Assembly (NCBI GenBank): GCA_028718605.1
Contig: JAQULM010000001.1
Coordinates: 337,073-401,072 of the forward strand
DNA: 64,000 bases
From: Patescibacteria group bacterium
GTDB lineage: Bacteria; Patescibacteriota; Patescibacteriia; UBA10025; JAHIVO01
Reading direction: 5' to 3'
Part shown: positions 11,497 to 32,607 of the stretch, in pieces
Layout: every line of letters starts with the position of its first letter
Numbering within the stretch: the stretch's first letter is position 1
Translations under genes and position numbers: made by a program
The notes under the pieces: model-generated
What the model was told of the DNA's origin: nothing
Databases searched by the model: none
The model's input: only the letters and a program-made list of their open reading frames with translations

Positions 11497-12240
11497 CTAA
11501 TAATTGGTGTTCAAAACTTGCCCCTGCAGAATCCGCGACGAAACTGTTGTCTGCATAGATATTGTCCTGCCAGCTACGGGAATTTTTTCATCCGTACTGA
11601 CCGCTGAAAATACGATACGGACTTTTGGCTGGAAATTGTCTCCGTCGGTGTAATATTCACACCGCGTATCTCCTGCAACATCACACCGGTAAGAATCATA
11701 ACCGCTTGCGCAATCACTGTCGTCATCGCAACTTCGCTCGGCAACCGTGCTGAAAGGGTCTGCGCTTGGGGTGATAGAAAAACGCAGCGCCTGGACTTGG
11801 ACGTTGGCGGGAGTTATATTGGCCCACCCCGTACCGCCAATGAGCGCACAATCCCCCAGGTTCACTTCTTCGCAATATTGGACCCCGCTGCCATCGCAAG
11901 CATCGCCAGTCCGGCGGAAAAATACCGACCTGCCTACCTGGTCAGTCAGCGCAAGAATGCAATTATCCGTAGCGGCGGCAGGGTGAAGATCGATCGCCGC
12001 CGGAGTCCCGCTATAAAACGAGTAATCTATTTTACCGAGGCGCACTTCCTGGGCCATGGCTTCAAACAAATACCGCGTATCGCTTTGCAGTTTCTGCTGC
12101 GCGACAGTCCTGCGTTGGGACGCATTGATAATGACGTACACATTGATGACAAGCAAGCCTACCATCACAAAAATTGACAGCGATATGATCATCTCAATAA
12201 GCGTAAACCCAGCGCTGCCTTTCGGCTTCAGGAATCGCAT
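11497..12240 (-). CDS. prepilin-type minor pilin (PilW-like)
   Basis: The ATG at 12240 gives leader MRFLKPKGSAG followed by 'FTLIEMIISLSIFV', a class III prepilin cleavage/methylation motif with Glu+5. The track N-terminus is 11 codons longer. Confidence 0.7.
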   Translation of the reverse strand: MRFLKPKGSAGFTLIEMIISLSIFVMVGLLVINVYVIINASQRRTVAQQKLQSDTRYLFEAMAQEVRLGKIDYSFYSGTPAAIDLHPAAATDNCILALTDQVGRSVFFRRTGDACDGSGVQYCEEVNLGDCALIGGTGWANITPANVQVQALRFSITPSADPFSTVAERSCDDDSDCASGYDSYRCDVAGDTRCEYYTDGDNFQPKVRIVFSAVSTDEKIPVAGRTISMQTTVSSRILQGQVLNTNY

Positions 12241-12280
12241 CAAATTATAGTGGGTGGTATAGTTCGTATTCATCGTACTA

Positions 12281-12904
12281 TTAAATCACCTGCCAATTAT
12301 ACAGCCGGTCTTCGAGCACTTCTTTCGTATGGGAATCACTCTTCGGCCAACGGATCTCTACGAGCACGCGGACGCCGATCTCGGTAGCGTACCCGCTATA
12401 TTCACCGTTACCGCACGTGTCAGTAGTACCGGGATCTGCGATCATTTCCCCATCCGCCCCATCGCCACAAATCGGATTCAAATATACTACACGATAAAAT
12501 TCCGTTGGACTGCCTCCCGGCGCCAGAGCCCCCTGAACATACATGGTGTTATCAAACCAAACTCTGGCGGCAGGATCGGAAAATCCAGTTGACACCACGA
12601 GCTCGGTTGGAGCCGTCGCCCAATTCGGAGGGTCAATCCGCGGAACCGTAACAGCTCCGACAGCCAATCCGCTGTCCCATGACGTGCTCGGCTGCGGATT
12701 GAGCCAGTTGCTATCCCGCATATTACGAGCAATTTCGATCGCCTCACGGGCAAGATTCGAAGCAATGAGCCGATTGCGGCTCTCCTTGGATGCGCGGATG
12801 CTCGTTACGATAAGAACGGCTGTCGCAACGAGCGCAATGACAAGTATGGTAATAGCAACCAGCATTTCTAGAATAGTTTGGCCACGATTGTTGATTTTTC
12901 TCAT
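12281..12904 (-). CDS. prepilin-type minor pilin (PilV/GspH-like)
   Basis: 207 aa. 'MRKINNRG|QTILEMLVAITILVIALVA' is a prepilin-like leader with a hydrophobic helix and Glu at +5. Confidence 0.6.
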   Translation of the reverse strand: MRKINNRGQTILEMLVAITILVIALVATAVLIVTSIRASKESRNRLIASNLAREAIEIARNMRDSNWLNPQPSTSWDSGLAVGAVTVPRIDPPNWATAPTELVVSTGFSDPAARVWFDNTMYVQGALAPGGSPTEFYRVVYLNPICGDGADGEMIADPGTTDTCGNGEYSGYATEIGVRVLVEIRWPKSDSHTKEVLEDRLYNWQVI

Positions 12905-12917
12905 ACATGTATTGGGC

Positions 12918-13646
12918 TTAGAGCGAACATTCCCCCATGCTTTCGCTGATCTGGCCGGAAATTCTGTTGATTACCACCTTCCGGCACACACTTGAAACAT
13001 AGTCGCTCTGAACGAGGATCTCAAGAAGATTAATCGGCTGATCGCTCGCGTCACGCGCCTCGGAACCATTGAGGAAAAAACGGACGCGCCCCTCCGGAGG
13101 CTCGAATGTTACATCGAGCGTGACAGCAGCGGACGGTATGTAGGCATCATTCCCTAATGCAAATTGCGCGAGGTGTATGCCTAACGGCGTCAGGTTCTCC
13201 TCAATCACACTGTAGTTCTCGGCGGAACCGTCATACACACCATTGCCATCAGTATCACCAAATACAATATATCCCTCAGTAGAAGCCATACGAACCCCAT
13301 ACCCGCCGACGGGTACCGATTGCCGGCACTCGCCGTTTGCCCCCGAATCGATCTTGCAGTATTCACTGCTGTTGCATGGATCAAACTCGTGTGCTGTCGA
13401 ATTTGCTCGGCAGAAAAAAATGCTGTTTCCGCCGATAGTATACGTCTGCGCAAGGCGGAACCGTTGCTGCAGTTGCGTGCCTGCTTGGCGGAGATCGTTT
13501 GACTGCTCTCCGCGATGAAAGTTGACCATCACGAGAGTCGTCAGCAAGCTGATCATGGCGAGCACGACGAGGAGTTCGGCGAGCGTAAAGCCGCTTTCGT
13601 CGGCATGGCATGGCTTCTTAAAATGAAATAGCCGTTGTGTACGCAT
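12918..13646 (-). CDS. prepilin-type minor pilin (FimU/PilE-like)
   Basis: 'GFTLAELLVVLAMISLLTTLV' is a canonical prepilin motif. The track start at 13706 is TTG. The ATG at 13646 (MRTQRLFHFKKPCHADESG|FTLAEL) is used and overlaps the last 9 codons of pilD. Confidence 0.6.
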   Translation of the reverse strand: MRTQRLFHFKKPCHADESGFTLAELLVVLAMISLLTTLVMVNFHRGEQSNDLRQAGTQLQQRFRLAQTYTIGGNSIFFCRANSTAHEFDPCNSSEYCKIDSGANGECRQSVPVGGYGVRMASTEGYIVFGDTDGNGVYDGSAENYSVIEENLTPLGIHLAQFALGNDAYIPSAAVTLDVTFEPPEGRVRFFLNGSEARDASDQPINLLEILVQSDYVSSVCRKVVINRISGQISESMGECSL

Positions 13647-14370
13647 CGAGTATTCTGTCTCCAAATATAAAGACGAGGATCGTTGCTGCCGCCAAGAACG
13701 TACCAAATGGCACCTTGCTCTTCCAACCCTTCCTGTGGGATGCGATCAGGCCGACGCCGACGAGTGAACCGAGCACGTATGCCATAAAAAGGGCTATGAG
13801 GAGTTTCTGGTACCCGAGCATCGCCCCCATAACCGCGCCGAGGCGTATGTCGCCGCCGCCGATCCATTTTCCCCGGGAAACCGCATACTGGAGGGAAAAA
13901 AATCCGCCGCCGATCGCTACCCCAATCACCAAGCTGAGAATGCTGATATCAAGGACAAACAGGGACCCGACGATCGCGATGCAAAACGCAGGTATGCTCA
14001 CGCGGTCTAAAATCAAGTAGTACCTCAAATCGTAAACAAAAATTATTATCAGAAGAGAAGCGTAAGCCAGTAATACATAAAATTCTGCCGACAGATCGAA
14101 ACGCCAGTATAATGCGAGGAATGTTAGCGCTGTGCCGATTTCAACGAGCGGATACTGCCAGGATATCCCCTTCCTGCAGTACCTGCATTTCCCCCAAAGC
14201 ATAAAAAAACTGATGACCGGTACGAGATCCCGCCACCCAAGGTCGTGTTTGCAGAGCGGGCAATACGAACGGCCCTTCATAAAGCTTACGCCGGCGTGCA
14301 GACGGTAAATCACGGCATTTAAAAAACTGCCCACCACTAACCCCAAAATGAGTACAAGCGCAACGACCAT
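13618..14370 (-). CDS. pilD: prepilin peptidase (A24 family)
   Basis: 250-aa polytopic membrane protein with the N-terminal 'CPLCKHDLGWRDL...CRYC' tetracysteine zinc motif and the 'GGGD' catalytic region of PilD/A24 peptidases. Confidence 0.85.
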   Translation of the reverse strand: MVVALVLILGLVVGSFLNAVIYRLHAGVSFMKGRSYCPLCKHDLGWRDLVPVISFFMLWGKCRYCRKGISWQYPLVEIGTALTFLALYWRFDLSAEFYVLLAYASLLIIIFVYDLRYYLILDRVSIPAFCIAIVGSLFVLDISILSLVIGVAIGGGFFSLQYAVSRGKWIGGGDIRLGAVMGAMLGYQKLLIALFMAYVLGSLVGVGLIASHRKGWKSKVPFGTFLAAATILVFIFGDRILDAYTTAISF

Positions 14371-14448
14371 AGTACCTCTCAGTATACCAAAAATAGCTCG
14401 AAAAAGGAATGTTCATTCGACATATCGAGCGCCACCATCGTACTTTTT

Positions 14449-14871
14449 TTATCGAATTCCGCTCGGGGAAAGCACGTGCTTGCCTGCGCTGAGGTCCTGG
14501 TACTCCTTTTCAAGCTGAAACGTAACTCCGTATTTGTCAGCCGCGGGAACCTCGCTTACCGTATAGCGGTACTTCCCCGGATCTTTGATTTCAGCAATCG
14601 ACGAAATATACGTTCCCAGATTGCACTGAGACACAACCATTCCCTTTGTGTTGCACCCGCTTTCAGCCGCTCCTTCATAGCTCGCAGTATCACTAAACAG
14701 AAGCTCGAAAGCGGCCTGCACCCGTGCCATATCAGAAAGCCGCATGGCATCACGTGCTTTCGCGCGCTCATTGTTAATGAGGAAAAAAGCGCCCCCGATA
14801 ACGATGCAAAAAACACCGGCTATTATAATTATCGCGGGCAATGAGATCCCTTTCTGTGATGGAACGTGCAT
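14449..14871 (-). CDS. pilin-fold-like membrane-anchored protein (no canonical G-1/E+5 prepilin motif)
   Basis: 140 aa. An N-terminal hydrophobic anchor is followed by 'RAKARDAMRLSDMARVQAAFELLFSD', which mirrors the pilin alpha1-helix continuation (compare 'ARDARRVSDLSQLRLGLALYF' in the adjacent pilin). Confidence 0.45.
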   Translation of the reverse strand: MHVPSQKGISLPAIIIIAGVFCIVIGGAFFLINNERAKARDAMRLSDMARVQAAFELLFSDTASYEGAAESGCNTKGMVVSQCNLGTYISSIAEIKDPGKYRYTVSEVPAADKYGVTFQLEKEYQDLSAGKHVLSPSGIR

Positions 14872-14920: not shown

Positions 14921-15409
14921 TTAACCCCCTGGTAATGTATCGCATGACGCCGATTCACCGAAAACACCAGTGGAATAAAAAAACCGGGATGTATAATTCA
15001 CGCTTTCCTTATAAAAACACAAGATATAGTTCCGGTGTTCAAGCGTCTCGTTTGTATCATAGAAATAATGATAGTTGGCGTTATTGATCGGGTCGATGAT
15101 ACGACGTCCAAGATGCACAGGAACGAGCGGGTTACCAATCTCTGAAAAAACCGATCCATCGACTCCCGCATTACTCAGGTCCGGCCCGTTACCGCCGTTT
15201 GCGACGGGTGTAGGATACGCCTTGTGATCTTCGAAGTAGAGTGCGAGCCCGAGCCGAAGTTGGGAAAGATCTGAAACGCGCCGCGCATCACGCGCGGACT
15301 CATTCGCATCGCGGAGGCTGGTAAGCCCCATAACGGCAAGGATGCCGATAATCGCGATAACAACGAGCAATTCGATGAGCGTGAAACCGCGGTGAGATTT
15401 GGATACCAT
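14921..15409 (-). CDS. type IV pilin (PilA-like)
   Basis: 162 aa. 'MVSKSHRG|FTLIELLVVIAIIGILA' is the canonical class III signal with F+1 and E+5, followed by 'ARDARRVSDLSQLRLGLALYF'. It has its own promoter upstream. Confidence 0.8.
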   Translation of the reverse strand: MVSKSHRGFTLIELLVVIAIIGILAVMGLTSLRDANESARDARRVSDLSQLRLGLALYFEDHKAYPTPVANGGNGPDLSNAGVDGSVFSEIGNPLVPVHLGRRIIDPINNANYHYFYDTNETLEHRNYILCFYKESVNYTSRFFYSTGVFGESASCDTLPGG

Positions 15410-15476: not shown

Positions 15477-18434
15477 CTACTCAGTTTGCGCATCCGAATA
15501 TTCTTCCGGCGGCTGATAAGCTTTATCAAACATGGCGGCTTCCCCAAAATGCTTCGCCGCGCTCTCAGTATCCCCGAGTGAATCATAGATATGCCCGAGC
15601 CTGCCATGAAGCAACCCAATCTCATACAGTATCTCCTCTCTATCCTGCACGACCCAAATCTGCGAATCGCGAAGCGATGGATCATACCGTGAAACTGCAT
15701 CCTCGAGCAGTACGCGCGCCTCCTCGATTCGGTCGCTGTACGCGTAGGCAGAAGAAAGTAAAAAGTACAGCACTGGCTTGCCGATAGGGTTCAGCTCAAT
15801 CCCCCGCTTCAAATACCGTTCAGCCGCCGCGTAGTCTTTGGCGAGAAGATAGTAACGGCCAAGGCGTTCGTACGGTCTCCAGTCATGGCTGCTGAGGCTG
15901 ATCGTCCGCTCAAATTCTGAAACGAACAGTTGCCGGTACAACGATACGTTCTGGGCATCCGTCGCGAGGTAGTACGCCTGCGCAAGGCCGTAGTGTAAGT
16001 CGTAATTCAATGGGTCCAGGCGCTGCGCAGTCTTCAGCGATGAGAGTGCGGCATCGTACTCGAGATCTTCCATCTGGCGGATGCCGGCGGTCTGCAATGT
16101 TGATGAGGCGAACAGCAATAAACCGCCGAGCATGCCAAGGGCAGCCATGGCGGGAAGGGCCGTGCGGACCGCGCCGCTATAAACTGCGCCGACCGCTCCG
16201 CGTGAAATTGCTGGCTGTTCTCGCCCACGCTGGATTAGAAATAGTTTATACACGCATCCGAGGGTTATAAAAAAAATGATTAGGTTGGTCGGGAACTGCC
16301 AATCAAGTTCCACGAAACCGTGCGTCAGCGCGCCGAGGAGCCCCATGCTCAATCCAAGCATGAGCGCCTGGTCAGTTTTTCGCGTTAGCTGATGGATCTG
16401 CCGCAAACTGGCACCAATGACAAAAAGAATTGATCCGACAAACCAAACAAATACAATACCGCCAACGATCCCCAATTCTGTAAAAAATTTCAGGTATATA
16501 TTATGCGGATCAATGGAATAATAACGGATATCTGTGAGGTACTGGCGGTACAAAATTTTATACGTCTCGAGCCCCGTGCCAATGATCGGGTGGTCGCGGA
16601 ACGAATCAAGCGCACCCTGCCAGAAATGAAGTCGTGCCGTAACCGCATTTTCTTCCGGAGTTTCGGATGAAAAACCGACATCAGCGGCAACAGTAGACGG
16701 CGCAGTACCGGTCTGCCCGGCCTGGGCTTGTGCCTCCTTGACCTGTACCAACGCCCAGCGGCCCGCAACCACGATCAGCGCAATCATCCCAATAGTCAGG
16801 ATAGTGCGAAGTATCTTGCGCTTGCGCTGTATTGAAAAAAATAGTACCACCCCAAGCGGCACGATGCTCGATAACCATGCCCCGCGTGAATATGTCAGCA
16901 CAAAAGTAAGCGTGAAGAGCGCCATCAGTGCGCCATAAGCTATCCGGCGCTTGGTTGTTTCCGCAAAAAGAAGGAATGAAAACGCAAGCGGCAAAGCGTA
17001 CAGGAGAAATCCCGCAAACGGATTATGCTGATAAAACGTCGAAATCGCGCGCAGGTACCCGAAAAACTGCGTTTGGAGAAAAAAGTAAATTCCGATAATT
17101 GAAAGTATGACAGCGAGCAGTACGATAAGCGCGCCGATTTTCTGCGCTTCGGCGTGGGACGTAATAAGGTACACGGTGCCGAAAAACAGCGCAAGGTACG
17201 GCACCCAATGCATGAATGCGGCATAGCTGTCGTACGGCGATACCGAATAGAGTATTGAAGCAAGCATTACTAAGAGAAGAAGCGCAAGCGGAAGTATAAT
17301 ATTGAATCGGAATGGAATCTTCCCCTGCAGGGGTTGCTTCCCTGACCGGATGACGAAAAACAGAAACGCGAACGCCATGACGAATATAAACGTCTGGGCG
17401 AAGAGGTCGCGGCCACCGGTAAAAAAGCTCGGCACGATCGCGACAAGCGCGAGCATGATGACGGACATGAGCTCACGTGCGTTCTTGATTTCGAGGAAAT
17501 AGTACAGGACCCCGAACCCCAAGGCGAATGCCCGGCCGATGATGAAAAATGGTGCGAGGGCACCCTCGATGAACCCGACTCGAAACCCGCGGACTGTCAG
17601 CGGCATAACCAGGGCGATGAGTATTGCTACTTCAGCAATCAGGGCATACCGGACTTCCGGAATCAACGGCAAGACTACGGCAGTGAGGCATGTACCGAAA
17701 AATCCAATAATCTGTGCTTTCAGTGTCTGCGGGGTATAGGAATCACGTAATAGTTTCCTCGGATAGTTTTTATACACGTCCATCCGCCAGTACGAACGCC
17801 AGAACTTTATCCGAAGGTAATCCATGAACTTTGTAGGATGATCGTGGTATACGATAGCACTCCGGGTAAAAACGATTCGGTGTTGTTTTTCAGATAACTT
17901 ATATGCGAGTTGCACATCCTCACTCATCCGCAATTTTTCGTCAAATCCCTCAAGCGAACGGAAAACTTCCGCGCGAATCGCGCCCGCCGAGAAATCCATG
18001 AAATCCAGGCCTTTTGAGCGGGCCATTTTGTCATACCGCTCCTCAAACTCCACCTGCACGAGCCGCGCAACGATACCGGGCTGTTTTGTCCGATACACGC
18101 CCTTGACTGCTTGTACCGACGCATCGGCGAACGGCTTCGCCATTTCCTCGGCCCACTGCCTGTCGGCCTCACAATCAGCATCGATAAAAAGAAGGATATC
18201 ACCACTTGCTTGGCGTGCCCCACAATTCCGTGCAGCTGCAGGTCCCCGGTTCGGCTCGCGGCAGTACCGGACACCAGAAAACTTTCGGACTACCCGCGCC
18301 GTAGCATCAGAAGAGCCATCGTCGATGACGATAATCTCGTATCTGTCTCGGGGGAGCGTCTGATGGAAGAGCGACTTCAGGCACCGTTCAATAGTCCTTT
18401 CGCCGTTAAATACTGGGACAATTATGGAAATCAT
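15477..18434 (-). CDS. fusion protein: GT2 glycosyltransferase + polytopic Wzy_C (O-antigen ligase/polymerase-like) domain + C-terminal TPR repeats; candidate O-oligosaccharyltransferase
   Basis: 985 aa. The N-terminus 'ISIIVPVFNGERTIERCL...YEIIVIDDGSSD' is a GT2 domain. About 12 TM helices follow, containing 'TYSRGAWLSS' and 'RLHFWQGALDSFRDHPIIGTGLETY', which are the Wzy_C family motifs. The C-terminus carries TPR-like repeats ('YDLHYGLAQAYYLA', 'YERLGRYYLLAKDYAAAERYLKRGIELNP'). Its ATG overlaps the upstream GT stop (TAATG). Confidence 0.75.
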   Translation of the reverse strand: MISIIVPVFNGERTIERCLKSLFHQTLPRDRYEIIVIDDGSSDATARVVRKFSGVRYCREPNRGPAAARNCGARQASGDILLFIDADCEADRQWAEEMAKPFADASVQAVKGVYRTKQPGIVARLVQVEFEERYDKMARSKGLDFMDFSAGAIRAEVFRSLEGFDEKLRMSEDVQLAYKLSEKQHRIVFTRSAIVYHDHPTKFMDYLRIKFWRSYWRMDVYKNYPRKLLRDSYTPQTLKAQIIGFFGTCLTAVVLPLIPEVRYALIAEVAILIALVMPLTVRGFRVGFIEGALAPFFIIGRAFALGFGVLYYFLEIKNARELMSVIMLALVAIVPSFFTGGRDLFAQTFIFVMAFAFLFFVIRSGKQPLQGKIPFRFNIILPLALLLLVMLASILYSVSPYDSYAAFMHWVPYLALFFGTVYLITSHAEAQKIGALIVLLAVILSIIGIYFFLQTQFFGYLRAISTFYQHNPFAGFLLYALPLAFSFLLFAETTKRRIAYGALMALFTLTFVLTYSRGAWLSSIVPLGVVLFFSIQRKRKILRTILTIGMIALIVVAGRWALVQVKEAQAQAGQTGTAPSTVAADVGFSSETPEENAVTARLHFWQGALDSFRDHPIIGTGLETYKILYRQYLTDIRYYSIDPHNIYLKFFTELGIVGGIVFVWFVGSILFVIGASLRQIHQLTRKTDQALMLGLSMGLLGALTHGFVELDWQFPTNLIIFFITLGCVYKLFLIQRGREQPAISRGAVGAVYSGAVRTALPAMAALGMLGGLLLFASSTLQTAGIRQMEDLEYDAALSSLKTAQRLDPLNYDLHYGLAQAYYLATDAQNVSLYRQLFVSEFERTISLSSHDWRPYERLGRYYLLAKDYAAAERYLKRGIELNPIGKPVLYFLLSSAYAYSDRIEEARVLLEDAVSRYDPSLRDSQIWVVQDREEILYEIGLLHGRLGHIYDSLGDTESAAKHFGEAAMFDKAYQPPEEYSDAQTE

Positions 18435-19300
18435 TACGGTATAGTTTTTAGCACAGCACGGTAGTCTATTAATTCCCCGCTCTCTGGCAAGCGCCGTATG
18501 CCGAGTTCAAGCCGCAGTGCCGCACGAACGATGGCGCAGCTTGCTCTGCTGCGGTACTGGTAAAAAAAACGCAGGAGTCCGATCCGCTGGTTAATAAACT
18601 TATTATAGCGTTTTTCGGGCGTTTTACCTAAATCATGATGCATGACTGTTGCGTCCGGGCAATACCCGACCTGCCATCCTGCGCGGCGCATGCGGTAGCA
18701 TAGTTCAACATCCTCCATGTACATGAAATACCGCTCGTCAAACATGCCGGCGCGCTGGAGCGCCGTCCGGCGGATCAGCATGCACGACCCGGCAACCCAA
18801 TCCGGATACTGAATATGCGAATACACCGGCGCGCGCCGCTCAAAATATACAGGGACTACTGCATTGATAACCGGGATACGGTCTCCGATTAGTTTTAATA
18901 CCGTGGGAAAACGGCCGATCGAATGCTGCAACGTACCGTCGGGGTTTTCGAGCCGTGCGCCTGCAACACCCACGGCCGGATGCGAACGCAAAAATTCAAG
19001 GAGCGCATCAACAGCACCCTCTTTAACAACCATGTCCGTATTCAACAGGAGGACAAATTCTCCTTCAGACGACCGGATGCCCTGGTTGCATGCACGCGCA
19101 AAACCAACGTTCTCGCTGTTTCGTATGCATAAAACGCTCGGCAATTTCTCAAGCCCGGCAGCCGTGCCATCTGTCGAGTTATTGTCTACGGCGATAATCT
19201 GGGTGTCAATTTTTTCCGTCGCGCGCATGACAGACTCGAGGAACGGGACGATATACCGCGCAGAGCTGTGTGTTACAAAAATGATTGAAAGAGTACGCAT
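18434..19300 (-). CDS. GT2-family glycosyltransferase
   Basis: 'LSIIFVTHSSARYIVPFLESV...IIAVDNNSTDGT' is a GT2 N-terminus with a DxD-type region. The track start at 19330 is GTG. The ATG at 19300 overlaps the upstream stop (ATGA). Confidence 0.75.
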   Translation of the reverse strand: MRTLSIIFVTHSSARYIVPFLESVMRATEKIDTQIIAVDNNSTDGTAAGLEKLPSVLCIRNSENVGFARACNQGIRSSEGEFVLLLNTDMVVKEGAVDALLEFLRSHPAVGVAGARLENPDGTLQHSIGRFPTVLKLIGDRIPVINAVVPVYFERRAPVYSHIQYPDWVAGSCMLIRRTALQRAGMFDERYFMYMEDVELCYRMRRAGWQVGYCPDATVMHHDLGKTPEKRYNKFINQRIGLLRFFYQYRSRASCAIVRAALRLELGIRRLPESGELIDYRAVLKTIP

Positions 19301-20274
19301 CAGGAGTCTATGGAAAAATTCTCTTGCCACTCTCGGAATTGAGAGCTTCCTAACCGGTTCAGTTTCGCAACTAAAGCGCGCTTTCTCAACATCGCCGGGA
19401 GGAAACGAAGAACACTTAACTTGATCCGTGTATGCATCACAGCGCGCTCGAATACAGTGCCAGCAGTGCTCTGGTATGTCACTGGATTCCGCAGTGCACG
19501 CGGCCAGAGCGCGATTGGGTACAGCTTGATCGCCGAAAAAACCCTGTTCCGTCCCGAATAAAAACGCTTCCTGTTATCCCTCCACTGTGACGTGGTAGCG
19601 GACACCTTGTGGTACACCACCGCGGTGGGAATGAACATACATTTCCACCCAGCAAGCCGTATGCGTAATCCTAAATCTGAATCCTCGATGTAAGCAAAAT
19701 GGTCACTGTCAAAATAGTCATCGCCGAGTTTGGATTCCTCCAGCGCCTCCCTGCGATACAGTGCGGCGGCGGCGCACGCGGTCAGACACTCTTCTTTCTT
19801 GAAAAACGTATCAGATTTACCGTGCCCTCGCGGCCCGACTTTCAGGCTGCCGCGGTAATAAAAATCGCCCGCAGAATCAACGATCGTGCGGTTATCGAAA
19901 TACAGCAGTTTGCTCGCGCACACGCCAATCCTTGGATCAGCATCTGCGGCAGATACCAGTTCAGAAAGCCAGTTCTCCTTAACCTCCGTGTCGTTGTTTA
20001 AACATACGACGTACCGGCACCCTGGATCCTCGAGCGCTCGCCGGATACCAACATTATTACCTTCAGCAAAGCCAAAATTTTTTCCCGTTTCAATTATCTG
20101 AACATTGGAAAATTTCTCGCGAACATAGGCGGCTGAACCGTCAGTCGAACCGTTATCAACGAATAGTACCTCGAAGTCTTTATATGTTTGGAGATAAACA
20201 CTCGATAGGCACGTCTGCAGATGCTCGAGACCATTCCAATTTAAAATTATAATAGATACTCGAGCACTATTCAT
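19300..20274 (-). CDS. GT2-family glycosyltransferase
   Basis: 324 aa. 'VSIIILNWNGLEHLQTCLSSVYLQTYKDFEVLFVDNGSTDGS' is the GT2 signature. Confidence 0.75.
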   Translation of the reverse strand: MNSARVSIIILNWNGLEHLQTCLSSVYLQTYKDFEVLFVDNGSTDGSAAYVREKFSNVQIIETGKNFGFAEGNNVGIRRALEDPGCRYVVCLNNDTEVKENWLSELVSAADADPRIGVCASKLLYFDNRTIVDSAGDFYYRGSLKVGPRGHGKSDTFFKKEECLTACAAAALYRREALEESKLGDDYFDSDHFAYIEDSDLGLRIRLAGWKCMFIPTAVVYHKVSATTSQWRDNRKRFYSGRNRVFSAIKLYPIALWPRALRNPVTYQSTAGTVFERAVMHTRIKLSVLRFLPAMLRKRALVAKLNRLGSSQFREWQENFSIDS

Positions 20275-20507: not shown

Positions 20508-22268
20508 ATGGATAACTTTTTCTATAAAATCATACGATATCTTTACTGGAGACTCCGCTGGTTGCTCAGTAAATGTAAGGCACTTTTTTTTCAAGTATTT
20601 GCGAACCAGAACAAGGAGCCCCGATATAAATACCATAAACGATTAATTCCTCGGGCAGCGATCGAGGCATTAGCGGCCCAGCCGAAAATATCAGTTATCA
20701 TGCCTGTCTTTAATATCGATTTGAAGTGGCTGAATAAAGCCATCAACTCGGTTAAAAATCAATCATACGCGAATTGGGAGCTGTGTATTGCCGACGATTG
20801 TTCAACAAATGAAAAAACCGTGCGCTTCCTAAAAAATATTCAGGACCAGCGCATACGAATTGTTTTTTTAAAAAAGAACGCCGGAATAGCAGCCGCTTCA
20901 AATGAAGCTTTGAAGCTCGCTTCAGGGGAATATGTCACTTTCCTTGATCATGATGACGAACTTACGCCAGATGCTTTATACGAAGTAGCGAAAAAAATTA
21001 ATGAAACCGGCGCTGAATTAATATACTCAGACGAAGATAAAATTACACCCAGCGGAACGTATATCGATCCGCATTTCAAACCAGACTACTCCCCCGATTT
21101 ATTACTTTCCCAAAATTACATTTGCCATCTATCAGCATACAAGAAACGAATCATCGATGCCCTTGGTGGATTGCGACGTGGCTTCGATGGATCGCAAGAC
21201 CATGATTTGCTGTTGAGGTTTACCGAAAAAACTGCTGCAATATCACATATTTCAAAAGTGCTCTACCACTGGAGAGCAGTCCCGGGATCAGTTGCCCACA
21301 CCTTCTCCTCGAAATCATATGCCTGGGAAGCGGGCCAAAGGGCATTGCAGGAAGCATTGTATAGAAGAAATATTGGCGGTACGGCATTCAGAGGCAAATT
21401 CCCAGGCACGTATCGAATAAAGAGAACCATAAAGAAAAAACCCTTAATCAGCATTATCATTCCGTTTAAAAATCACGTCAGTGAATTAAAAAAACTAATA
21501 CACTCGATCACAACGAAATCAACGTACGATAATTTTGAAATTATTGGCATTGATAATAACAGCACAGAACAAGAAACGATCGATTTTATCAAAGCGATAC
21601 AAAAACAGGATGCGAGAATAAAAATATTCGCCGACAACGCCCCGTTCAACTACTCTCGGCTCAATAATTATGGTGCTTCACGCGCACGCGGGGAACATCT
21701 CCTACTACTGAATAATGATACCGAAATTATCTCCCCCGACTGGATAGAGCGCTTGCTTTGCCATTCACAGCGGGACGAAGTAGGAATTGTGGGTGCAAAA
21801 CTTTACTATTTCAACAACACGATCCAGCACGCAGGAATCATTATTGGAATCGGCGGCGTTGCGGGGCACCCGCATAAATTTCTCGATAAAAAACAGCGTG
21901 GCTACATGTGTAGGCCTCATTTGACGCAGAACGTATCAGCAGTTACAACCGCATGCGCTATGATAAAAAGTTCCCTGTACAAGCAACTGGGGGGGCTGGA
22001 TGAAAAAAACCTGCCAATCGCGTTTAATGATGTTGATTTCTGTTTAAGGCTCCGCGAAAAAGGTTACCTGAATATTTTCACTCCCGAATGCGAGCTCTAC
22101 CATTATGAATCAAGGTCAAGGGGGCAGGAAGATTCTCAGGAAAAGAAGGACCGCTTCGCCGGTGAAGTCCGCTTTATGCAAAAACGACATCAGGCAATAG
22201 TAAGTGCTGGCGACCCCTACTACAACCCGAACCTCACCTTGGAAAATGAAAACTTTTGGTTGAAGTAA
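20508..22268 (+). CDS. two-domain GT2 glycosyltransferase (tandem GT2 modules)
   Basis: 586 aa. The first GT2 module is 'ISVIMPVFNIDLKWLNKAINSVKNQSYANWELCIADDCST' and the second is 'ISIIIPFKNHVSELKKLIHSI...FEIIGIDNNSTEQET'. Confidence 0.75.
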   Translation: MDNFFYKIIRYLYWRLRWLLSKCKALFFQVFANQNKEPRYKYHKRLIPRAAIEALAAQPKISVIMPVFNIDLKWLNKAINSVKNQSYANWELCIADDCSTNEKTVRFLKNIQDQRIRIVFLKKNAGIAAASNEALKLASGEYVTFLDHDDELTPDALYEVAKKINETGAELIYSDEDKITPSGTYIDPHFKPDYSPDLLLSQNYICHLSAYKKRIIDALGGLRRGFDGSQDHDLLLRFTEKTAAISHISKVLYHWRAVPGSVAHTFSSKSYAWEAGQRALQEALYRRNIGGTAFRGKFPGTYRIKRTIKKKPLISIIIPFKNHVSELKKLIHSITTKSTYDNFEIIGIDNNSTEQETIDFIKAIQKQDARIKIFADNAPFNYSRLNNYGASRARGEHLLLLNNDTEIISPDWIERLLCHSQRDEVGIVGAKLYYFNNTIQHAGIIIGIGGVAGHPHKFLDKKQRGYMCRPHLTQNVSAVTTACAMIKSSLYKQLGGLDEKNLPIAFNDVDFCLRLREKGYLNIFTPECELYHYESRSRGQEDSQEKKDRFAGEVRFMQKRHQAIVSAGDPYYNPNLTLENENFWLK

Positions 22269-22333
22269 TTCCAGTTTCTGCACCAAAAATCCAGGATCGG
22301 CTATAATCCCGGTTAATTATATACTACTAACAT

Positions 22334-23221
22334 TTACTTTTTCTTTTGAAACGGTATTTTTGTTTTTACTTTGTGCAAGAATGTAGCAATTTTCCAGCTT
22401 CGGGAATTGTAAATAGTTTGAATTTCAGCTTCAAGCTTGCCCATTTTTTGCTGAGCGCGCGCGCGTTCTTGCTGAAGCTCAAACACCTGCGCGTCCAATC
22501 TATTGAGCTTCGTGCCGTCGCCAATAACAATCGAGCTGCGAACCGTCTGACCGATCGGCTGTTTGCTGCATACGCCGAGAATGTATCGATGCTGCTCGGG
22601 ATTCTGGCTCACGGACCTATACACATCGATGTTCTTGATGCAGGCATCAGTCTTCTCCTGCAATTGATCTTCCGAAGAGATACCATCGCTTATAATATTG
22701 TTTTGATAGAAAAAACATAGGTGGGGGAAATACTGCGCGAGAAATGCTTTAAATCCCTGCAACGTAAATTCCTTTTTATGGAACTGGTTTCCTGAAGGAT
22801 AGACGGGCACGTTGGGGGTTGAAATTATCAGCATTCCCGCATCTTTCAAGACGCGCCGCACTTCCTTCAAAAAAACGTCTTGGCCTCCGAAATGTTCGAT
22901 TGTTTCGAACGAAACGACGATATCGACTGAATGGTCATCCAAAGGGATTGCATGGGCGTCGCCTACGAGATACCGGGTTCGTGCTGTTGAATAGGTCTTG
23001 TTAGAATAGCGGATAGCTTCATCTGAAGAGTCAACACCAATAACCCTCGCAGCGCCATGATCTGCCAAGTATTTCGACCCGTACCCGCTGCCGCAGGCGA
23101 TATCGAGGACTGTTTTATTTTTTACAAATTGGGCAGCAAAAGCATAACGAGCTATATGCTCCAAATAATAAGGCTCCTCTTTATCAAATTCTGGGATCAT
23201 ACGCTCACCCGTTGATTTCAT
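22334..23221 (-). CDS. class I SAM-dependent methyltransferase with C-terminal coiled-coil
   Basis: 'VLDIACGSGYGSKYLADHG' is the glycine-rich SAM-binding motif I, and 'IVVSFETIEHF' is the post-I region. The C-terminal roughly 60 aa ('LNRLDAQVFELQQERARAQQKMGKLEAEIQTIY') is predicted coiled-coil. The track start at 23236 is TTG; the ATG at 23221 is used. Confidence 0.7.
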   Translation of the reverse strand: MKSTGERMIPEFDKEEPYYLEHIARYAFAAQFVKNKTVLDIACGSGYGSKYLADHGAARVIGVDSSDEAIRYSNKTYSTARTRYLVGDAHAIPLDDHSVDIVVSFETIEHFGGQDVFLKEVRRVLKDAGMLIISTPNVPVYPSGNQFHKKEFTLQGFKAFLAQYFPHLCFFYQNNIISDGISSEDQLQEKTDACIKNIDVYRSVSQNPEQHRYILGVCSKQPIGQTVRSSIVIGDGTKLNRLDAQVFELQQERARAQQKMGKLEAEIQTIYNSRSWKIATFLHKVKTKIPFQKKK

Positions 23222-23222
23222 A

Positions 23223-23915
23223 CTACGCTTTATCAATGATGAAAATATACCGCAATGGCACTCCTGAATTGAATAATGAAAATAGTGGATTAAAAAATGT
23301 AAAACTCTTCATTGTTTTATGAGCGAAAAATCTCGGGAATCTGAATTGCATCGTAATTAAATAATACCATATACGGATGTTTGCATTCTTTTTTATTTGT
23401 ATGCGCAATGAATCGCCTCCCGCAGTGCTTTTGATATAGTGGATAATTTCGTCTCGATCCGGATGACCATACTTGAGATGCTGGTCGAGCATCTCGAGCT
23501 TTTCAACATGATGCCCGTAGTAATAATCTCCAAACCTTTTTACCATCTTCCAGCCTTCGCGTCCACATGGCACTGCCAAGATTATTCTTTTCTTTGTAAC
23601 GCGTATCAGCTCTCCAATCATTGCTTTCTTGTCTGCCGGTTTTTCGATATGCTCGATGGCGTCAACGCAAATTGAAATATTGAAAAAATTATCTGGATAC
23701 TGAAGATTCGTTCCGCGAGATCTTACGTTTGTAACATTTGGCAGAGTACTCCCGCTTTCGATAAAATCATAATTAATGAATTTGCATTCAGGCATCAATT
23801 CTCCGATTCCGCCGAGGACCCCACCCCCTACTTCTAACACCTCCTGCCTCCGATAATCGGCAACTTCTCGGATTGCCTTGACGACAGGAATATACCGCTG
23901 TAATGTATCGAGCAT
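23223..23915 (-). CDS. SAM-dependent methyltransferase-like protein
   Basis: 230 aa. 'VLEVGGGVLGG' is motif I-like and 'CVDAIEHIEKP...LIRVTKKRIILAVP' are Methyltransf_11/23-like motifs. Confidence 0.6.
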   Translation of the reverse strand: MLDTLQRYIPVVKAIREVADYRRQEVLEVGGGVLGGIGELMPECKFINYDFIESGSTLPNVTNVRSRGTNLQYPDNFFNISICVDAIEHIEKPADKKAMIGELIRVTKKRIILAVPCGREGWKMVKRFGDYYYGHHVEKLEMLDQHLKYGHPDRDEIIHYIKSTAGGDSLRIQIKKNANIRIWYYLITMQFRFPRFFAHKTMKSFTFFNPLFSLFNSGVPLRYIFIIDKA

Positions 23916-23921
23916 ATATTT

Positions 23922-25103
23922 TTAAAACCTCCACGTATACGGGAACTGAATAAAGCCGAAATACTTTTTTTGATTTTCATTTGCGATATAAAATCGGAAA
24001 ATTCTTTCAACTCTGTCAAAAATCAAATCTCCGCTTTTGTCGGCGACTGCAGGCGTAACATAGTACATGCCATCGAGGAACGGGTTGTTTTGGATAATAA
24101 ACTCAACCTGTTTTTCACCCTCAACTTTTTCTACCACCAAATGGTCGATGCCCATATTGATGCCTGAAAGCAGTAAGCCCTGCTCGTTTGCAAACTCTAA
24201 GCCAAAAATGACGTTATGCACTGCCCGATTTGTTTTACAAAAAATTTTGATGCGTATTGTTTCACCCGTTTTAAAAGTTTTTTTCTCCTCACCTTGCTCA
24301 TTAGAAAAAGCTACTTTAGTAATATAAATCCCGCTTGTCGCCCGTGCCTCGATATTTTCTGGCGTCGTGTCAGTAAATGATTGGCCATATGCAGTAATCA
24401 TCTCCCTCGGTTTTCCGATATTTTTCACCTTTCCGCCCTCAATAAATACAACGCGATCACAAAATCTTTCGATCGAACCCAAATCGTGGCTTACGAAAAT
24501 AATGGTCTTTTTCTCGCGCTTTAGCCTATCAAATGTGTTGAAGCATTTTCTCTGGAAATCTGCATCCCCAACCGCTAAGACTTCGTCGACGAGCAAAATA
24601 TCAGCGTCTGACTGTATTGCCGTAGAAAACGCAAGCCGTACCTGCATACCTGAAGAAAAGTTCTTCAGCTTCTGGTCTACAAAGTTTTCAAGTTCTGCAA
24701 ATTTAATAATGCTATCGAACTTCTGATCGATCGCCGTGCGCGATAGTCCAAGAATTGCTCCATACAGGTACACATTCTCCCGCGCCGTCAAATCTGGTTG
24801 AAAACCTACGCCAAGTTCAAGGAAGGGGGCTATCGAACCAAGTACGGCAATTCTGCCAGAATTCGGCTGCAAAATCCCAGCGATAATTTTTAAAAGCGTT
24901 GATTTTCCGGATCCATTGCGGCCGATGATTCCGAGAAATTCCCCCTCCCTCACACTGAATGAAACTTCCCGAAGCGCATGAAACTGTTCATAGGTGCGGT
25001 GACTGAATGCGCTCACAAAATACTCCTTGAGCGTGGTTTTACGTTCATGGGGGATTTTGAAAACCTTAGTTATTTTATTTATTTCAATAATCGTTTCGAC
25101 CAT
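23922..25103 (-). CDS. wzt: polysaccharide ABC exporter ATP-binding protein with C-terminal carbohydrate-binding extension (Wzt/TagH-like)
   Basis: Walker A 'GIIGRNGSGKSTLLKIIAGI', ABC signature 'FSSGMQVRLAFS' and Walker B 'ILLVDE' are present. A roughly 150-aa C-terminal extension (residues about 250-400) matches the Wzt terminal-residue-binding domain. The track start is TTG; the ATG at 25103 (MVETIIEINKITKVF) is used. Confidence 0.85.
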   Translation of the reverse strand: MVETIIEINKITKVFKIPHERKTTLKEYFVSAFSHRTYEQFHALREVSFSVREGEFLGIIGRNGSGKSTLLKIIAGILQPNSGRIAVLGSIAPFLELGVGFQPDLTARENVYLYGAILGLSRTAIDQKFDSIIKFAELENFVDQKLKNFSSGMQVRLAFSTAIQSDADILLVDEVLAVGDADFQRKCFNTFDRLKREKKTIIFVSHDLGSIERFCDRVVFIEGGKVKNIGKPREMITAYGQSFTDTTPENIEARATSGIYITKVAFSNEQGEEKKTFKTGETIRIKIFCKTNRAVHNVIFGLEFANEQGLLLSGINMGIDHLVVEKVEGEKQVEFIIQNNPFLDGMYYVTPAVADKSGDLIFDRVERIFRFYIANENQKKYFGFIQFPYTWRF

Positions 25104-25146
25104 ACACTTTCTTTTCTTCTCAACCAAGATTGGCTTGGAACACGTA

Positions 25147-25875
25147 TTAGACTTTCTTTAATAATAATACAATATTTATCTCATATAAGTTCGAATCGAG
25201 TATTATAAAATTAGAAAGCTCCCGCTGCAACCATTGCATGAAGGCCATGAATGATTGATAGTCCCAAACATGCACGTGAATGCTTGCTTGCCCGCGATAC
25301 GCCCCTTCGCATTGGAACGTGTCAGTAATCTCATTAACCGTCACCATAAAATCCTCGTAGTGACCACGCGAAACACTCGTGGTTTTCTGATTAAAATCAT
25401 CCTGCAAATGCTGCAGCGGAGTGCGCTGCCGGTTTTTGTCAAACGTGAAACGCTTGTCAGGAACTACGATATACACCATGCCTCCCTTTTTAACGACCCT
25501 GAGCCATTCCTGTATCGCGCTCCCAGGGTCCGGAAGGTGCTCAAGCAAGTGCGAGTTACACACAAAATCAAGTGAATTATCTGGAATCGTGTCGAGATTC
25601 TGGGCGTTGCAGATATAATCCACATGTATAATTTTATCATTGGGGACATTCTTATGCGGCTTATAAATCTCTTTCAATTTCTCCGTGCTTGCTACATCAA
25701 CATACCGCATCATCGTATTTGAATTAATAGGAAATGGTGACGCAAGCGCACCAATTTCAATTCCTTCCCCAGAAAAATGATCATGCACGAATTCTTTCCA
25801 ATTCGGTCCAATAATTTTATAACTTCCAACCAACCGTTCTCGCCATTTATTGAGTAACGCCTGAATACGTCTCAT
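25147..25875 (-). CDS. SAM-dependent methyltransferase (Methyltransf_11-like)
   Basis: 242 aa. 'LDFVCNSHLLEHLPDP' and 'LRVVKKGGMVYIVVP' are typical class I methyltransferase motifs. Confidence 0.65.
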   Translation of the reverse strand: MRRIQALLNKWRERLVGSYKIIGPNWKEFVHDHFSGEGIEIGALASPFPINSNTMMRYVDVASTEKLKEIYKPHKNVPNDKIIHVDYICNAQNLDTIPDNSLDFVCNSHLLEHLPDPGSAIQEWLRVVKKGGMVYIVVPDKRFTFDKNRQRTPLQHLQDDFNQKTTSVSRGHYEDFMVTVNEITDTFQCEGAYRGQASIHVHVWDYQSFMAFMQWLQRELSNFIILDSNLYEINIVLLLKKV

Positions 25876-25925
25876 TTGAAAGGCTTTCGGTTATTTTTTT
25901 ATTACACGATCCCGAATAATTCACG

Positions 25926-26693
25926 CTATAAATCCTCAGCAAAATACGGCTCCCGTTTTTTAAACACGAGGTACCCGACAACGAATAGTGCGATTGCCAT
26001 AAAGAATGATGCGATAACTCCCTTCAAATCAGGGGCAATTCCATAAATAACGACGTCCCGTGAATATTTTATAATCCGTGTCATCGGGTTCATGAAATAC
26101 CAGAAATGGTATTTCGCGGGAATCATGCTCATAGAGTAAATAATCGGCGTCGCCCAAAAACCGATCTGAAGCATGACCTCCCAGATATGGGACAGATCGC
26201 GGACTTTTATATTCAATGCGGAGATGAGCAGCCCAAGCCCCGTGGTGATCAAATAAAGTTCAAGCAGAAGGAGCGGAAATAATACTACGGTCGCGTGTAC
26301 CGGAACGCCGCTGGCAATAAAAAAAATCATAAACACGATAAGATTCAGGAAAAGCGTAATCAGGGAAGTAACCGTGGAGGCAACCACGATAATGGTGCGC
26401 GGGAATGACACGCGTGCAATCAAACCGCCTTTGTTCACCAAATTACTGATAGCGGTAGTCGTGCCTTCAGCGAGGTACCCCCAGAGAATAACGCCAAGCA
26501 GCAAATACAGGTTGTACTGCGCAATATCGAACCGCATGAATACAGAAAAAACCAAATACAAGACGCCGAAAAGGAGGAGCGGCTTTACCAGTGACCACAG
26601 GTACCCGAGCACGGATCCCTGGTACCGGAGCTTGAAATCCGCGATGGCAAGTTCGCGCACCAGGTTCCAGTATCGTTGGCGTTTTATCGTCAT
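25926..26693 (-). CDS. wzm: ABC-2 type polysaccharide exporter permease
   Basis: 255 aa with six TM helices. 'ADFKLRYQGSVLGYLWSLVKPLL' is the Wzm/ABC-2 N-terminal signature. It lies immediately upstream of the methyltransferase and wzt genes. Confidence 0.8.
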   Translation of the reverse strand: MTIKRQRYWNLVRELAIADFKLRYQGSVLGYLWSLVKPLLLFGVLYLVFSVFMRFDIAQYNLYLLLGVILWGYLAEGTTTAISNLVNKGGLIARVSFPRTIIVVASTVTSLITLFLNLIVFMIFFIASGVPVHATVVLFPLLLLELYLITTGLGLLISALNIKVRDLSHIWEVMLQIGFWATPIIYSMSMIPAKYHFWYFMNPMTRIIKYSRDVVIYGIAPDLKGVIASFFMAIALFVVGYLVFKKREPYFAEDL

Positions 26694-27372: not shown

Positions 27373-27565
27373 TTCCTCTTCACCTCCTCTCGTGACCCAG
27401 GAACACGAGCACGCACTCTCCGCATATGCTGGCTGTTCACAGATCACGGATCCGAAATTGATCCGTGGGCTGCCAGTGCGAAACGATATGCTTCCCGTAG
27501 TATTCCCGAGGGATATTACTTATTAAAAGAAAAGAACGATGAAGTAGTACCCAAAGTATAAAATA

Positions 27566-27594
27566 ATAGTATCACATTTTCGGGCAAAAGTCAA
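27566..27594 (-). promoter_or_regulatory. sigma70-like promoter for pilin 26872..27372 (-35 TTGACT, 17 nt, -10 TACTAT) with roughly 185-nt leader
   Basis: Read on the minus strand as TTGACTtttgcccgaaaatgtgaTACTAT. The leader contains an 8-bp hairpin CACGGATC-cgaaatt-GATCCGTG at 27440..27462. Confidence 0.4.
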
Positions 27595-27627
27595 TGTACA
27601 ACACCCACTTTTCCACAGCATTTTCGC

Positions 27628-28833: not shown

Positions 28834-28864
28834 AGAATATCTTGGGTTTGGATAAGTAAAAAGT

Positions 28865-29254: not shown

Positions 29255-29295
29255 ATGCCTTCTTGCGTTAATGATAGTTATTGAATGCGAATTAT

Positions 29296-31044: not shown

Positions 31045-31063
31045 GCGGGTATAAACTGTTTTT

Positions 31064-31987: not shown

Positions 31988-32023
31988 TTTTTCACCGCCG
32001 ATCTGCATATGCATCCGAGATAA

Positions 32024-32602: not shown

Positions 32603-32607
32603 AGGCG

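Follow-up and report, generated by a model that had tools for sequence, protein, structure and literature searches.

The minus strand of a 64,000-nt stretch of Patescibacteria DNA (assembly GCA_028718605.1, contig JAQULM010000001.1, positions 337,073 to 401,072; the whole stretch is called the window below) encodes a protein of 985 amino acids (aa) in which a family 2 glycosyltransferase (GT2) module, a membrane domain of the WaaL/Wzy_C ligase type and a C-terminal array of tetratricopeptide repeats (TPR) follow each other in one chain. This three-part fusion is a real feature and its domain assignment is correct. The gene is the last one of a glycan cluster that encodes a Wzm/Wzt ATP-binding cassette (ABC) transporter and methyltransferases, and the cluster lies inside a type IV pilus operon. 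With moderate confidence we read the protein as one bifunctional membrane enzyme that would carry active sites on both membrane faces, act in an ABC transporter-dependent glycan pathway and use pilin as acceptor. The host is an uncultivated ultrasmall bacterium.

One open reading frame for a GT2 glycosyltransferase, a WaaL-like domain and TPR repeats

The list of open reading frames (ORFs) and the translation agree on a single uninterrupted ORF with an ATG start. A plus-strand reading of 15477-18434 was rejected, its translation being riddled with stops. The identical NCBI protein (P0001) is annotated merely as 'MAG: glycosyltransferase [Patescibacteria group bacterium]'. In Pfam searches, Glycos_transf_2 (PF00535) matched residues 3-127 (E 2.4e-35, 122.4 bits versus a cut-off of 23.3), the match to Glyco_tranf_2_3 spanned residues 2-208, Wzy_C (PF04932; CAZy GT121-like) matched residues 503-663 over profile positions 2-149 of 149 (E 1.8e-23, 83.4 bits versus a cut-off of 31.7), and several TPR families, among them TPR_2 and TPR_19, matched residues 787-917 (E 9e-10). 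A preliminary description of this DNA, made from its letters and ORF list, had proposed this make-up and order and called for a domain-boundary analysis; as the matches lie far above their cut-offs and the middle region is assigned to Wzy_C, the proposal is confirmed. The WaaL/PglL-type motifs reported there were likewise located in the translation: YSRGAWLS corresponds to residues 515-522, and the second motif reads R601-LH-FW...F612...P616..G619TG621...Y625. Translational coupling to the preceding GT2 gene also holds, the stop codon of that gene overlapping the ATG of the fusion in a TAATG junction.

Conservation and rarity of the fused form

The fused form is conserved though very rare. At 37-55% identity, no fewer than six independent assemblies share its three parts in collinear order. 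The homologues P0002-P0005 and P0007 align end to end with the 985-aa protein in alignment A1, matching it in length and order, and invariant residues occur in all three parts and across the joints. The fusion homologues stem from different samples and assemblies. An assembly or frameshift artefact joining two genes, for which the preliminary description had suggested read mapping, would be in line with the wide occurrence of both halves as separate proteins and with a joint at residues 312-317; however, the same architecture is intact and collinear in these proteins and in loci from independent assemblies of other samples, and conserved residues span the joint, so that even without read mapping we consider an artefact next to impossible.

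An exhaustive HMMER search with the full-length profile against 1.84 billion cluster representatives detected the complete fusion in only a few clusters (P0003, P0007 and P0121), together with the fragments P0006 and P0122 and possibly P0251 and P0267. The same search returned many stand-alone proteins of 310-376 aa that match profile positions 1 to about 311, and about 20 stand-alone proteins of 630-730 aa that match from positions 313-321 to about 970. Since the separate halves, a GT2 enzyme with its own membrane helices and a Wzy_C protein with TPR, are thus widespread, the fusion amounts to a junction at residues 312-317. At locus L008 the TPR part is a separate, overlapping gene, which implies that the TPR joint is breakable too. 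Pattern scans yielded 5 loci in a collection of 185,579 species, each represented by one genome, and, among 241 million metagenome records, 7 loci; most of these loci duplicate each other. At the unfused locus L007 the adjacent GT2 gene of 262 aa is an orthologue of the 298-aa GT2 gene upstream of the fusion and not of the fused GT2 module, and a split-gene counterpart of the GT2-ligase pair was not found there.

A ligase domain of the WaaL type

In an hhalign profile alignment with E. coli K-12 WaaL, R517, R601 and H644 of the fusion fall in register with R215, R288 and H338. These WaaL residues are essential and conserved in PglL (PMC3643930), and the catalytic His is also required in TfpM (PMC9829042). 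Within a set comprising the fusion family and 35 more distant Wzy_C relatives, R517 is conserved in 40/40, R601 in 41/41 and H644 in 40/41 sequences.

A first AlphaFold model, built from six sequences, reached a predicted local distance difference test (pLDDT) score of 63, and its Foldseek search gave TPR and GT2 matches only. The model obtained from alignment A3, whose 54 rows combine the fusion family with trimmed GT2-module and Wzy_C(+TPR) relatives, had a pLDDT of 93.0 and a predicted template modelling (pTM) score of 0.86. The best solved-structure match of its central domain was WaaL (7tpj_B; 18.2, 352/403), and the domain adopts the WaaL fold of 12 helices, in which a large external loop connects helices 9 and 10. 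The catalytic loop and the conserved His and Arg residues that the preliminary description had proposed to look for correspond to a predicted external loop with R601 and H644, complemented by R517. Among PDB chains, the ligase domain had no match by single sequence and only noise by a six-sequence profile; fold comparison alone found WaaL.

The domain belongs to none of the closely defined families examined. The RfaL model NF012031 gave 42.5 bits against a cut-off of 277, so that the domain is not a WaaL proper. Lipopolysaccharide core genes were not seen in the 64-kb window, and we know of no lipid A in Patescibacteria. No match to PglL_A (PF15864), the motif flanking Wzy_C that was defined in PMC3643930, was obtained in Pfam at E <= 0.01, which separates the domain from the PglL type. 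TIGR00947, the IctB 'bicarbonate transporter' family, gave 55 bits against a cut-off of 366, and TIGR04370, a repeat-unit polymerase family, gave a weak match of 20 bits. The protein also differs from TfpO and TfpM in that ligase and TPR together measure about 670 aa, that its gene precedes the pilin gene and that the pilins end in G or P. By analogy with characterised ligases, the domain would transfer a glycan linked to undecaprenyl diphosphate (Und-PP) to an acceptor.

A membrane-held GT2 module

The N-terminal module has the three-dimensional GT-A fold. D85-A-D87, the DxD motif, is conserved in 20/20 sequences and D39 is conserved too, while E172-D173 is found in 19-20 of 22 sequences; the catalytic Asp/Glu base of GT2 enzymes has been described in PMC12595478. 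Taken together with the Arg/Arg/His set of the ligase, both halves look catalytically competent by sequence. The catalytic domain is followed by an interface helix (residues 203-223) with K210..R213..W216, an invariant DSYTPQTLK motif at residues 231-239, of which DSYTPQ is specific to the fusion family, and three hydrophobic helices, a (236-254), b (261-286) and c (288-315, with a near-invariant G300-R301). Fold comparison of the modelled module matched the Chlorella virus hyaluronan synthase (28.7, 304), Xenopus HAS1 (26.0, 296), PcManGT (24.8, 275) and BcsA (24.2, 290). In the model, the module thus shares the general build of membrane GT2 enzymes, a GT-A domain followed by an interface helix and membrane helices, and its shape can be described as 'minimal cellulose-synthase-like'. 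A QxxRW motif is not present in the module, residues 205-222 reading DYLRIKFWRSYWRMDVYK, and only three helices follow the catalytic domain, so that the QxxRW motif and the channel of at least six helices that mark processive synthases are both missing from it.

The module reached the cut-off of no curated NCBIfam model, the best being MftF (133 bits versus 280) and EpsD (122 versus 370), and its stand-alone homologues likewise stay below the MftF and EpsD cut-offs. It also passed the cut-off of 21.7 bits for Glyco_transf_21, a ceramide/lipid glucosyltransferase family, with a score of 26.9. In its closest homologues, which are 40-50% identical to it over residues 1-250/325, a counterpart of the module is joined to the phosphoglycosyl transferase Bac_transf, an initiating enzyme, and stand-alone homologues are located in lipid-linked glycan clusters. 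These relatives would place the GT2 module at an early step on a carrier lipid-linked primer: most likely, it adds an early sugar to a polyprenyl-(pyro)phosphate-linked primer.

Predicted membrane topology

Topology was derived from hydropathy, loop charges (positive-inside rule) and the helix list of the model. In the predicted layout, the basic loops of helices d to o (residues 317-739) face the same side as the GT2 domain, and the acidic loop of 82 residues at 564-645 faces the other. A strongly basic stretch precedes helix a, a short loop connects a and b, and helix c, which is more amphipathic than a or b, is joined to b and d through single-residue breaks. Since the cytoplasm has to contain both the GT2 domain and the basic loops, the chain is expected to cross the membrane an even number of times between them, and helix c is accordingly read as an in-plane or re-entrant helix. 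Helix c can be likened to the interface helices of BcsA. The arrangement of helices a-c is thus a model-based proposal; PcManGT is said to have three antiparallel membrane helices (PMC10569066).

With this arrangement the GT2 domain would be cytoplasmic, and the ligase loop and the TPR array, which follows a predicted 13th transmembrane helix, would be outside the cell. The earlier suggestion that the TPR domain could meet the acceptor is compatible with this placement, which hydropathy and the positive-inside rule both predict. C-terminal or adjacent TPR have been described for the O-oligosaccharyltransferases (O-OTases) WsfB, PglL and WsaA/WsaB (PMC2943079).

An ABC transporter-dependent glycan cluster

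Wzm, Wzt with its carbohydrate-binding domain Wzt_C, two or three methyltransferases and four further GT2 domains are encoded in the cluster, while neither a Wzx flippase (Polysacc_synt) nor a second Wzy_C protein was found among the scanned ORFs of the window. Because an ABC transporter-dependent pathway needs no Wzy polymerase, we argue that the Wzy_C domain of the fusion would be a terminal ligase. The gene set corresponds to methyl-capped pathways of the E. coli O8/O9a or slg type. A precedent is the S-layer glycan of Geobacillus stearothermophilus, which is methyl-capped, exported by Wzm/Wzt and ligated by a Wzy_C protein (PMC2943079).

In L001, L003, L009, L010 and L019 the fusion is directly preceded by orthologues of both upstream GT2 genes (42-64% identity), and the 298-aa type is also found in L002 and L007. 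The gene content of the low-GC block differs in every locus; the 324-aa GT2, the 298-aa GT2 and the fusion persist. GC content is 0.41-0.43 at 20000-26000 of the window versus 0.51-0.56 in both flanks, and this region looks like a horizontally exchanged serotype-type cassette. An unfused relative, P0123 (35% identity), occurs in a Wzm-Wzt-GT4-[Wzy_C]-GT2-PGT-pilin arrangement, where PGT denotes a phosphoglycosyl transferase; other relatives are found in Wzx-type clusters or among housekeeping genes.

Two observations concern these genes in their own right. As listed, the 298-aa ORF begins with a GTG that falls in the overlap with the 3' end of the 324-aa gene; an ATG at its codon 11 (nt 19300) would overlap the stop codon of the 324-aa gene and create an overlapping stop/start chain through three GT2 genes. 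In L001 (313-1698) the Wzt ATPase has a C-terminal methyltransferase domain where the window gene has Wzt_C.

A pilus operon around the cluster and a candidate acceptor

The fusion stop and the following prepilin gene are separated by 67 nt on the same strand. In the window and in L001/L010, L004, L005 and L009, a type IV pilus operon encloses the glycan cluster, and the order PilB-response regulator-PilC-pilin ahead of it is also found in L004, L005 and L009. Pilin orthologues directly follow the fusion in L001, L009, L011, L020 and L021; the fragments L011, L020 and L021 contain the C-terminal end of the fusion, then the same pilin, a 140-aa ORF and PilD. The pilin link drawn in the preliminary description therefore stands as far as a downstream prepilin gene on the same strand is concerned, and it recurs, but it is not universal, since L002, L003 and L008 depart from it. 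Owing to the recurrent embedding in a pilus operon, pilin is the best acceptor candidate, and the type IV pilin next door is, judged from gene context, plausibly and most likely the acceptor.

The pilin orthologues end in Gly or Pro, never in Ser/Thr, which excludes a C-terminal site of the TfpO/TfpM type and leads us to propose an internal site. They share a G-GPDLS loop just past the N-terminal helix, with Ser at about mature position 71; Neisseria PilE is modified in this region, which we treat as a lead only. Larger C-terminal periplasmic domains are a trait of OTases that act on internal sites (PMC9829042), and the TPR array of the fusion is in keeping with this.

Within the 67-nt gap, TTGACG-16-TATAAT at 15437-15464 on the minus strand matches a sigma-70-like consensus at 11/12 positions and may give the pilin its own strong promoter although it stands behind the glycan operon. 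The contig of L011 (CAZBNI010000064.1; 5.7 kb) has been assigned to a bin of 'uncultured Gammaproteobacteria'; judged by its gene order and by its 46-69% identity with the window, it appears to be a mis-binned Patescibacteria contig.

Proposed mechanism and alternative explanations

In the mechanism that we propose, the GT2 module, held at the cytoplasmic face by its interface helix and two or three hydrophobic helices, would put an early sugar onto a lipid-linked primer. The neighbouring soluble GT2 enzymes would lengthen the chain, the methyltransferases would cap the polymer, and the carbohydrate-binding domain of Wzt would recognise the cap, with Wzm/Wzt exporting the lipid-linked polymer. 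At the external face the ligase module, with R517, R601 and H644, would move the finished glycan from the lipid carrier to the acceptor. The 13th helix would put the TPR array outside, where it could hold acceptor or polymer, and the acceptor would be the neighbouring type IV pilin, modified at an internal site.

This departs from the preliminary description, according to which the fusion could couple the last sugar addition to transfer. Such coupling is unlikely, because the GT2 site is predicted in the cytoplasm and the R601/H644 loop outside, with Wzm/Wzt export intervening, and because the Bac_transf-fused relatives indicate an early step. In the revised reading, an early cytoplasmic step and the final external step would be united on one polypeptide. 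By making initiation depend on the ligase being present, such a fusion could keep carrier lipid from being trapped in dead-end intermediates, and it could provide fixed stoichiometry and co-localisation of the committing and the finishing step. More tentatively, the protein may be a 'start-and-finish' pilin polysaccharyl-transferase, whose GT2 module commits the carrier lipid and whose TPR-guided ligase puts a long methyl-capped polymer on pilin; we regard this narrower version as possible. Quite improbable, and perhaps hinted at by L004, is a GT2 'half tunnel' packed on the ligase bundle that would form a single conduit without Wzm/Wzt.

Several observations weigh against the proposed mechanism. 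An initiating phosphoglycosyl transferase (Bac_transf, Glycos_transf_4) was not found in the scans of the 64-kb window; it may be encoded elsewhere in the genome. Wzm/Wzt are not in locus L004. In L002/L012, L003 and L008 the fusion occurs without pilus genes nearby, with Wzm/Wzt in two of the three. The stand-alone relative P0249 is located among housekeeping genes. The hhalign comparison with the single WaaL sequence has weak statistics (E 0.049), though its register is clear. Finally, three membrane crossings by helices a-c would turn the ligase upside down with respect to the GT2 domain; the loop charges and the one-residue junctions argue otherwise, indirectly.

Among the alternatives, the one that fares best, though still unlikely, is that other or many surface proteins are the acceptors, as in S-layer or PglL-type systems, and that the pilus locus is the favoured insertion site of a mobile glycan island. 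The low GC and variable gene content of the cluster, its position outside pilus loci in L002, L003 and L008, the giant, presumed surface proteins encoded nearby and the nature of PglL as a general OTase (PMC9829042) would all agree with it. However, insertion between the pilin/PilC and pilin/PilD blocks recurs in at least six loci whose fusions are only about 50% identical, and an unfused relative also adjoins a pilin gene.

Somewhat less probable still is that the GT2 module builds an acceptor glycolipid inside the cell, which is flipped and receives the exported polymer from the ligase, giving a membrane-anchored lipoglycan. WadA, the only characterised GT-ligase fusion, acts in this way together with Wzm/Wzt (PMC9938171), and both the Glyco_transf_21 match and the three loci without pilus genes would suit such a role. 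Against it, the closest GT2 homologues are fused to phosphoglycosyl transferases, which indicates action on the donor side, most loci have the cluster within a pilus operon, and TPR tails are known from protein-targeting OTases (PMC2943079).

We hold it to be very improbable that the Wzy_C domain is a Wzy-type polymerase, or that GT2 and membrane domain form a polymerising and translocating synthase. The Pfam Wzy_C family does include polymerases, TIGR04370 is weakly matched, and processive synthases (HAS, BcsA) are the best structural matches of the GT2 module, but the three helices after GT2 are too few for a channel, QxxRW is lacking, a Wzx flippase or chain-length regulator was not found, and the best solved-structure match of the membrane domain is a ligase. 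Moreover, a Wzt_C exporter and capping methyltransferases imply cytoplasmic polymerisation (PMC2943079).

Features of the window

Features of the fusion, of the glycan cluster and of the flanking pilus genes are listed in Table 1.

Table 1. Annotated features of the window (coordinates in nt of the window; residues refer to the 985-aa protein)
Feature	Coordinates	Strand	Basis
Whole ORF: GT2, membrane helices, WaaL-like ligase domain, TPR	15477..18434	-	ORF list, translation, alignment A1, AlphaFold model
GT-A (GT2) catalytic domain, predicted cytoplasmic, residues 1-200	17835..18434	-	D38-D39, D85-x-D87, E172-D173 conserved
Membrane part of GT2 module, residues 201-315	17490..17834	-	interface helix, DSYTPQTLK, helices a-c
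Predicted 12-helix WaaL/Wzy_C-type ligase (oligosaccharyltransferase) domain, residues 317-739	16218..17486	-	
Putative third catalytic residue R517 (SRGAW)	16882-16884	-	
Predicted large external loop, residues 564-645 (R601, G619-T-G621, D642-P-H644-N)	16500..16745	-	
Predicted 13th transmembrane helix, residues 754-780	16095..16175	-	hydropathy, flanking charges; model helix 754-789
TPR array, about 5 helical hairpins, residues 785-970, predicted extracytoplasmic	15525..16082	-	
Prepilin, 162 aa, MVSKSHRG|FTLIE, candidate acceptor	14921..15409	-	N_methyl E 1.4e-9 / TIGR02532
Downstream pilus block: pilin-like ORF, PilD, three minor pilins	11497..14871	-	Pfam, NCBIfam, synteny
Conserved 140-aa pilin-like ORF	14449-14871	-	
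Prepilin peptidase PilD	13618-14370	-	
Two upstream GT2 genes: 298-aa ORF (18434-19330), 324-aa ORF (19300-20274)	18434..20274	-	Pfam
Variable low-GC block of glycan cluster	20508..26693		Pfam
Double-GT2 gene	20508-22268	+	Pfam; inverted relative to rest
Methyltransferases (Methyltransf_11/25)	22334-23236 and 25147-25875		Pfam
230-aa ORF	23223-23915		
Wzt ATPase (ABC_tran) with Wzt_C carbohydrate-binding domain	23922-25127		Pfam
Wzm permease (ABC2_membrane)	25926-26693		Pfam
Upstream pilus block: second pilin, PilC, response regulator, PilB, PilO-like, PilM	26872..36078	-	Pfam

Beyond the three minor pilins of the downstream block lies LigA. The 140-aa ORF is kept at 52-69% identity between pilin and PilD in all pilus-linked loci and has no Pfam family; with an N-terminal hydrophobic segment and an 'ARDAxRxSD' stretch like those of pilins, and without the G|FTLIE cleavage motif, it may encode an atypical pilin-like protein. 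In the upstream block, the second pilin ORF (26872-27447, minus strand) is listed from a GTG, and its prepilin motif RRKG|FTLIE begins at about residue 26, so that the true start is probably an internal Met. Ser, Thr, Asp and Gly abound in the C-terminal tail of this pilin.

Upstream of pilM, two giant ORFs of 3742 aa (36099-47327, minus strand) and 1958 aa (49826-55702, minus strand) contain almost no recognisable domains, with sub-threshold fn3 and BNR matches, and presumably encode surface proteins. In a 941-aa ORF (60333-63158, plus strand), a T2SSG pilin-like segment occurs together with bacterial TSP3 repeats and a Calx-beta domain; the product could be a large minor pilin or a tip adhesin.

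Significance

Patescibacteria rely on type IV pili for host attachment, and pilin glycosylation has so far been predicted in them by sequence alone (PMC11623550). A variable glycan cluster that is wired into a pilus operon and closed by its own ligase is a concrete candidate for a pilin glycosylation system. In the literature searched we found neither a description of a GT2-Wzy_C-TPR protein, nor a ligase fused to a membrane-anchored GT2 of the present subfamily, nor an O-OTase system in Patescibacteria, which is no proof that none exists. If the 'start-and-finish' reading is true, no protein O-glycosylation system would have been described in Patescibacteria before this one, nor an oligosaccharyltransferase that has a cytoplasmic glycosyltransferase built in, and swappable low-GC genes in a pilus operon would mean serotype-like variation of the host-binding filament of these episymbionts. 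Furthermore, an O-oligosaccharyltransferase that handles long polymers exported by an ABC transporter could serve bioconjugate production. The family is tiny, since only a few genomes represent it in collections of 185,579 species and 1.84 billion protein clusters, and the organisms are uncultivated; its impact hinges on heterologous reconstitution.

Comparison with known systems

The fusion is a variant of already known enzyme types, its parts and its principle both being known. The preliminary description had held that characterised systems keep glycosyltransferase and ligase on separate proteins. This does not apply to Brucella WadA, a characterised fusion of a cytoplasmic GT25 domain (residues 1-266) with an O-antigen ligase (GT121, residues 267-703) (PMC9938171, PMC10920833). 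On the predicted topology of the fusion, both proteins have an N-terminal cytoplasmic glycosyltransferase, a C-terminal 12-helix ligase, sites on both membrane faces and a pathway with Wzm/Wzt export (PMC9938171, PMC10920833). Unlike WadA, the present fusion gave no Glyco_transf_25 match; the GT25 domain of WadA has no membrane helices of its own, whereas the GT2 module has an interface helix and three hydrophobic helices. WadA also lacks TPR, and its glycosyltransferase makes the lipid A-core acceptor, whereas the relatives of the GT2 module point to the donor side. The present case would extend the two-sided glycosyltransferase-ligase design to another glycosyltransferase family, another envelope and probably a protein acceptor, and the occurrence of WadA and of the GT2 fusion in different settings suggests that such fusions arise repeatedly.

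In export and transfer, the closest parallels are the slg clusters with WsaB and WsfB in Geobacillus stearothermophilus and Paenibacillus alvei, which share a monoderm envelope, a methyl-capped polymer, Wzm/Wzt, transfer to protein by a Wzy_C enzyme and low-GC central glycosyltransferase genes (PMC2943079). In Paenibacillus WsfB and Neisseria PglL, as in the fusion, TPR form the C-terminal part of the same polypeptide, and WsaA is a separate TPR gene adjacent to WsaB, resembling the arrangement in L008 (PMC2943079). In contrast to the fusion, these OTases have no fused glycosyltransferase; they act on an S-layer protein, and their cluster lies outside pilus operons.

PglL, PglS, TfpO (PilO) and TfpM share the Wzy_C domain and the same Arg/Arg/His residues and transfer Und-PP-linked glycans onto type IV pilins (PMC3643930, PMC9829042); they differ in their length of 420-620 aa and in having no cytoplasmic glycosyltransferase. 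PglL and PglS have larger C-terminal periplasmic parts and modify internal sites (PMC3643930, PMC9829042), whereas TfpO and TfpM measure 420-470 aa, are encoded downstream of pilA and need a C-terminal Ser/Thr of the pilin (PMC9829042). TfpW of Pseudomonas aeruginosa group IV pili, which was proposed to be multifunctional, is likewise a membrane glycosyltransferase whose gene adjoins pilA and whose C-terminal TPR domain is periplasmic (bioRxiv 10.1101/2020.04.19.049825); unlike the fusion it has a GT-C fold, uses polyprenyl-P-arabinofuranose, is unrelated to Wzy_C and has no cytoplasmic GT2. The comparison with PcManGT, HAS and BcsA concerns the N-terminal module only, which differs from them by the absence of QxxRW and of a full channel, while the similarity in fold is still high.

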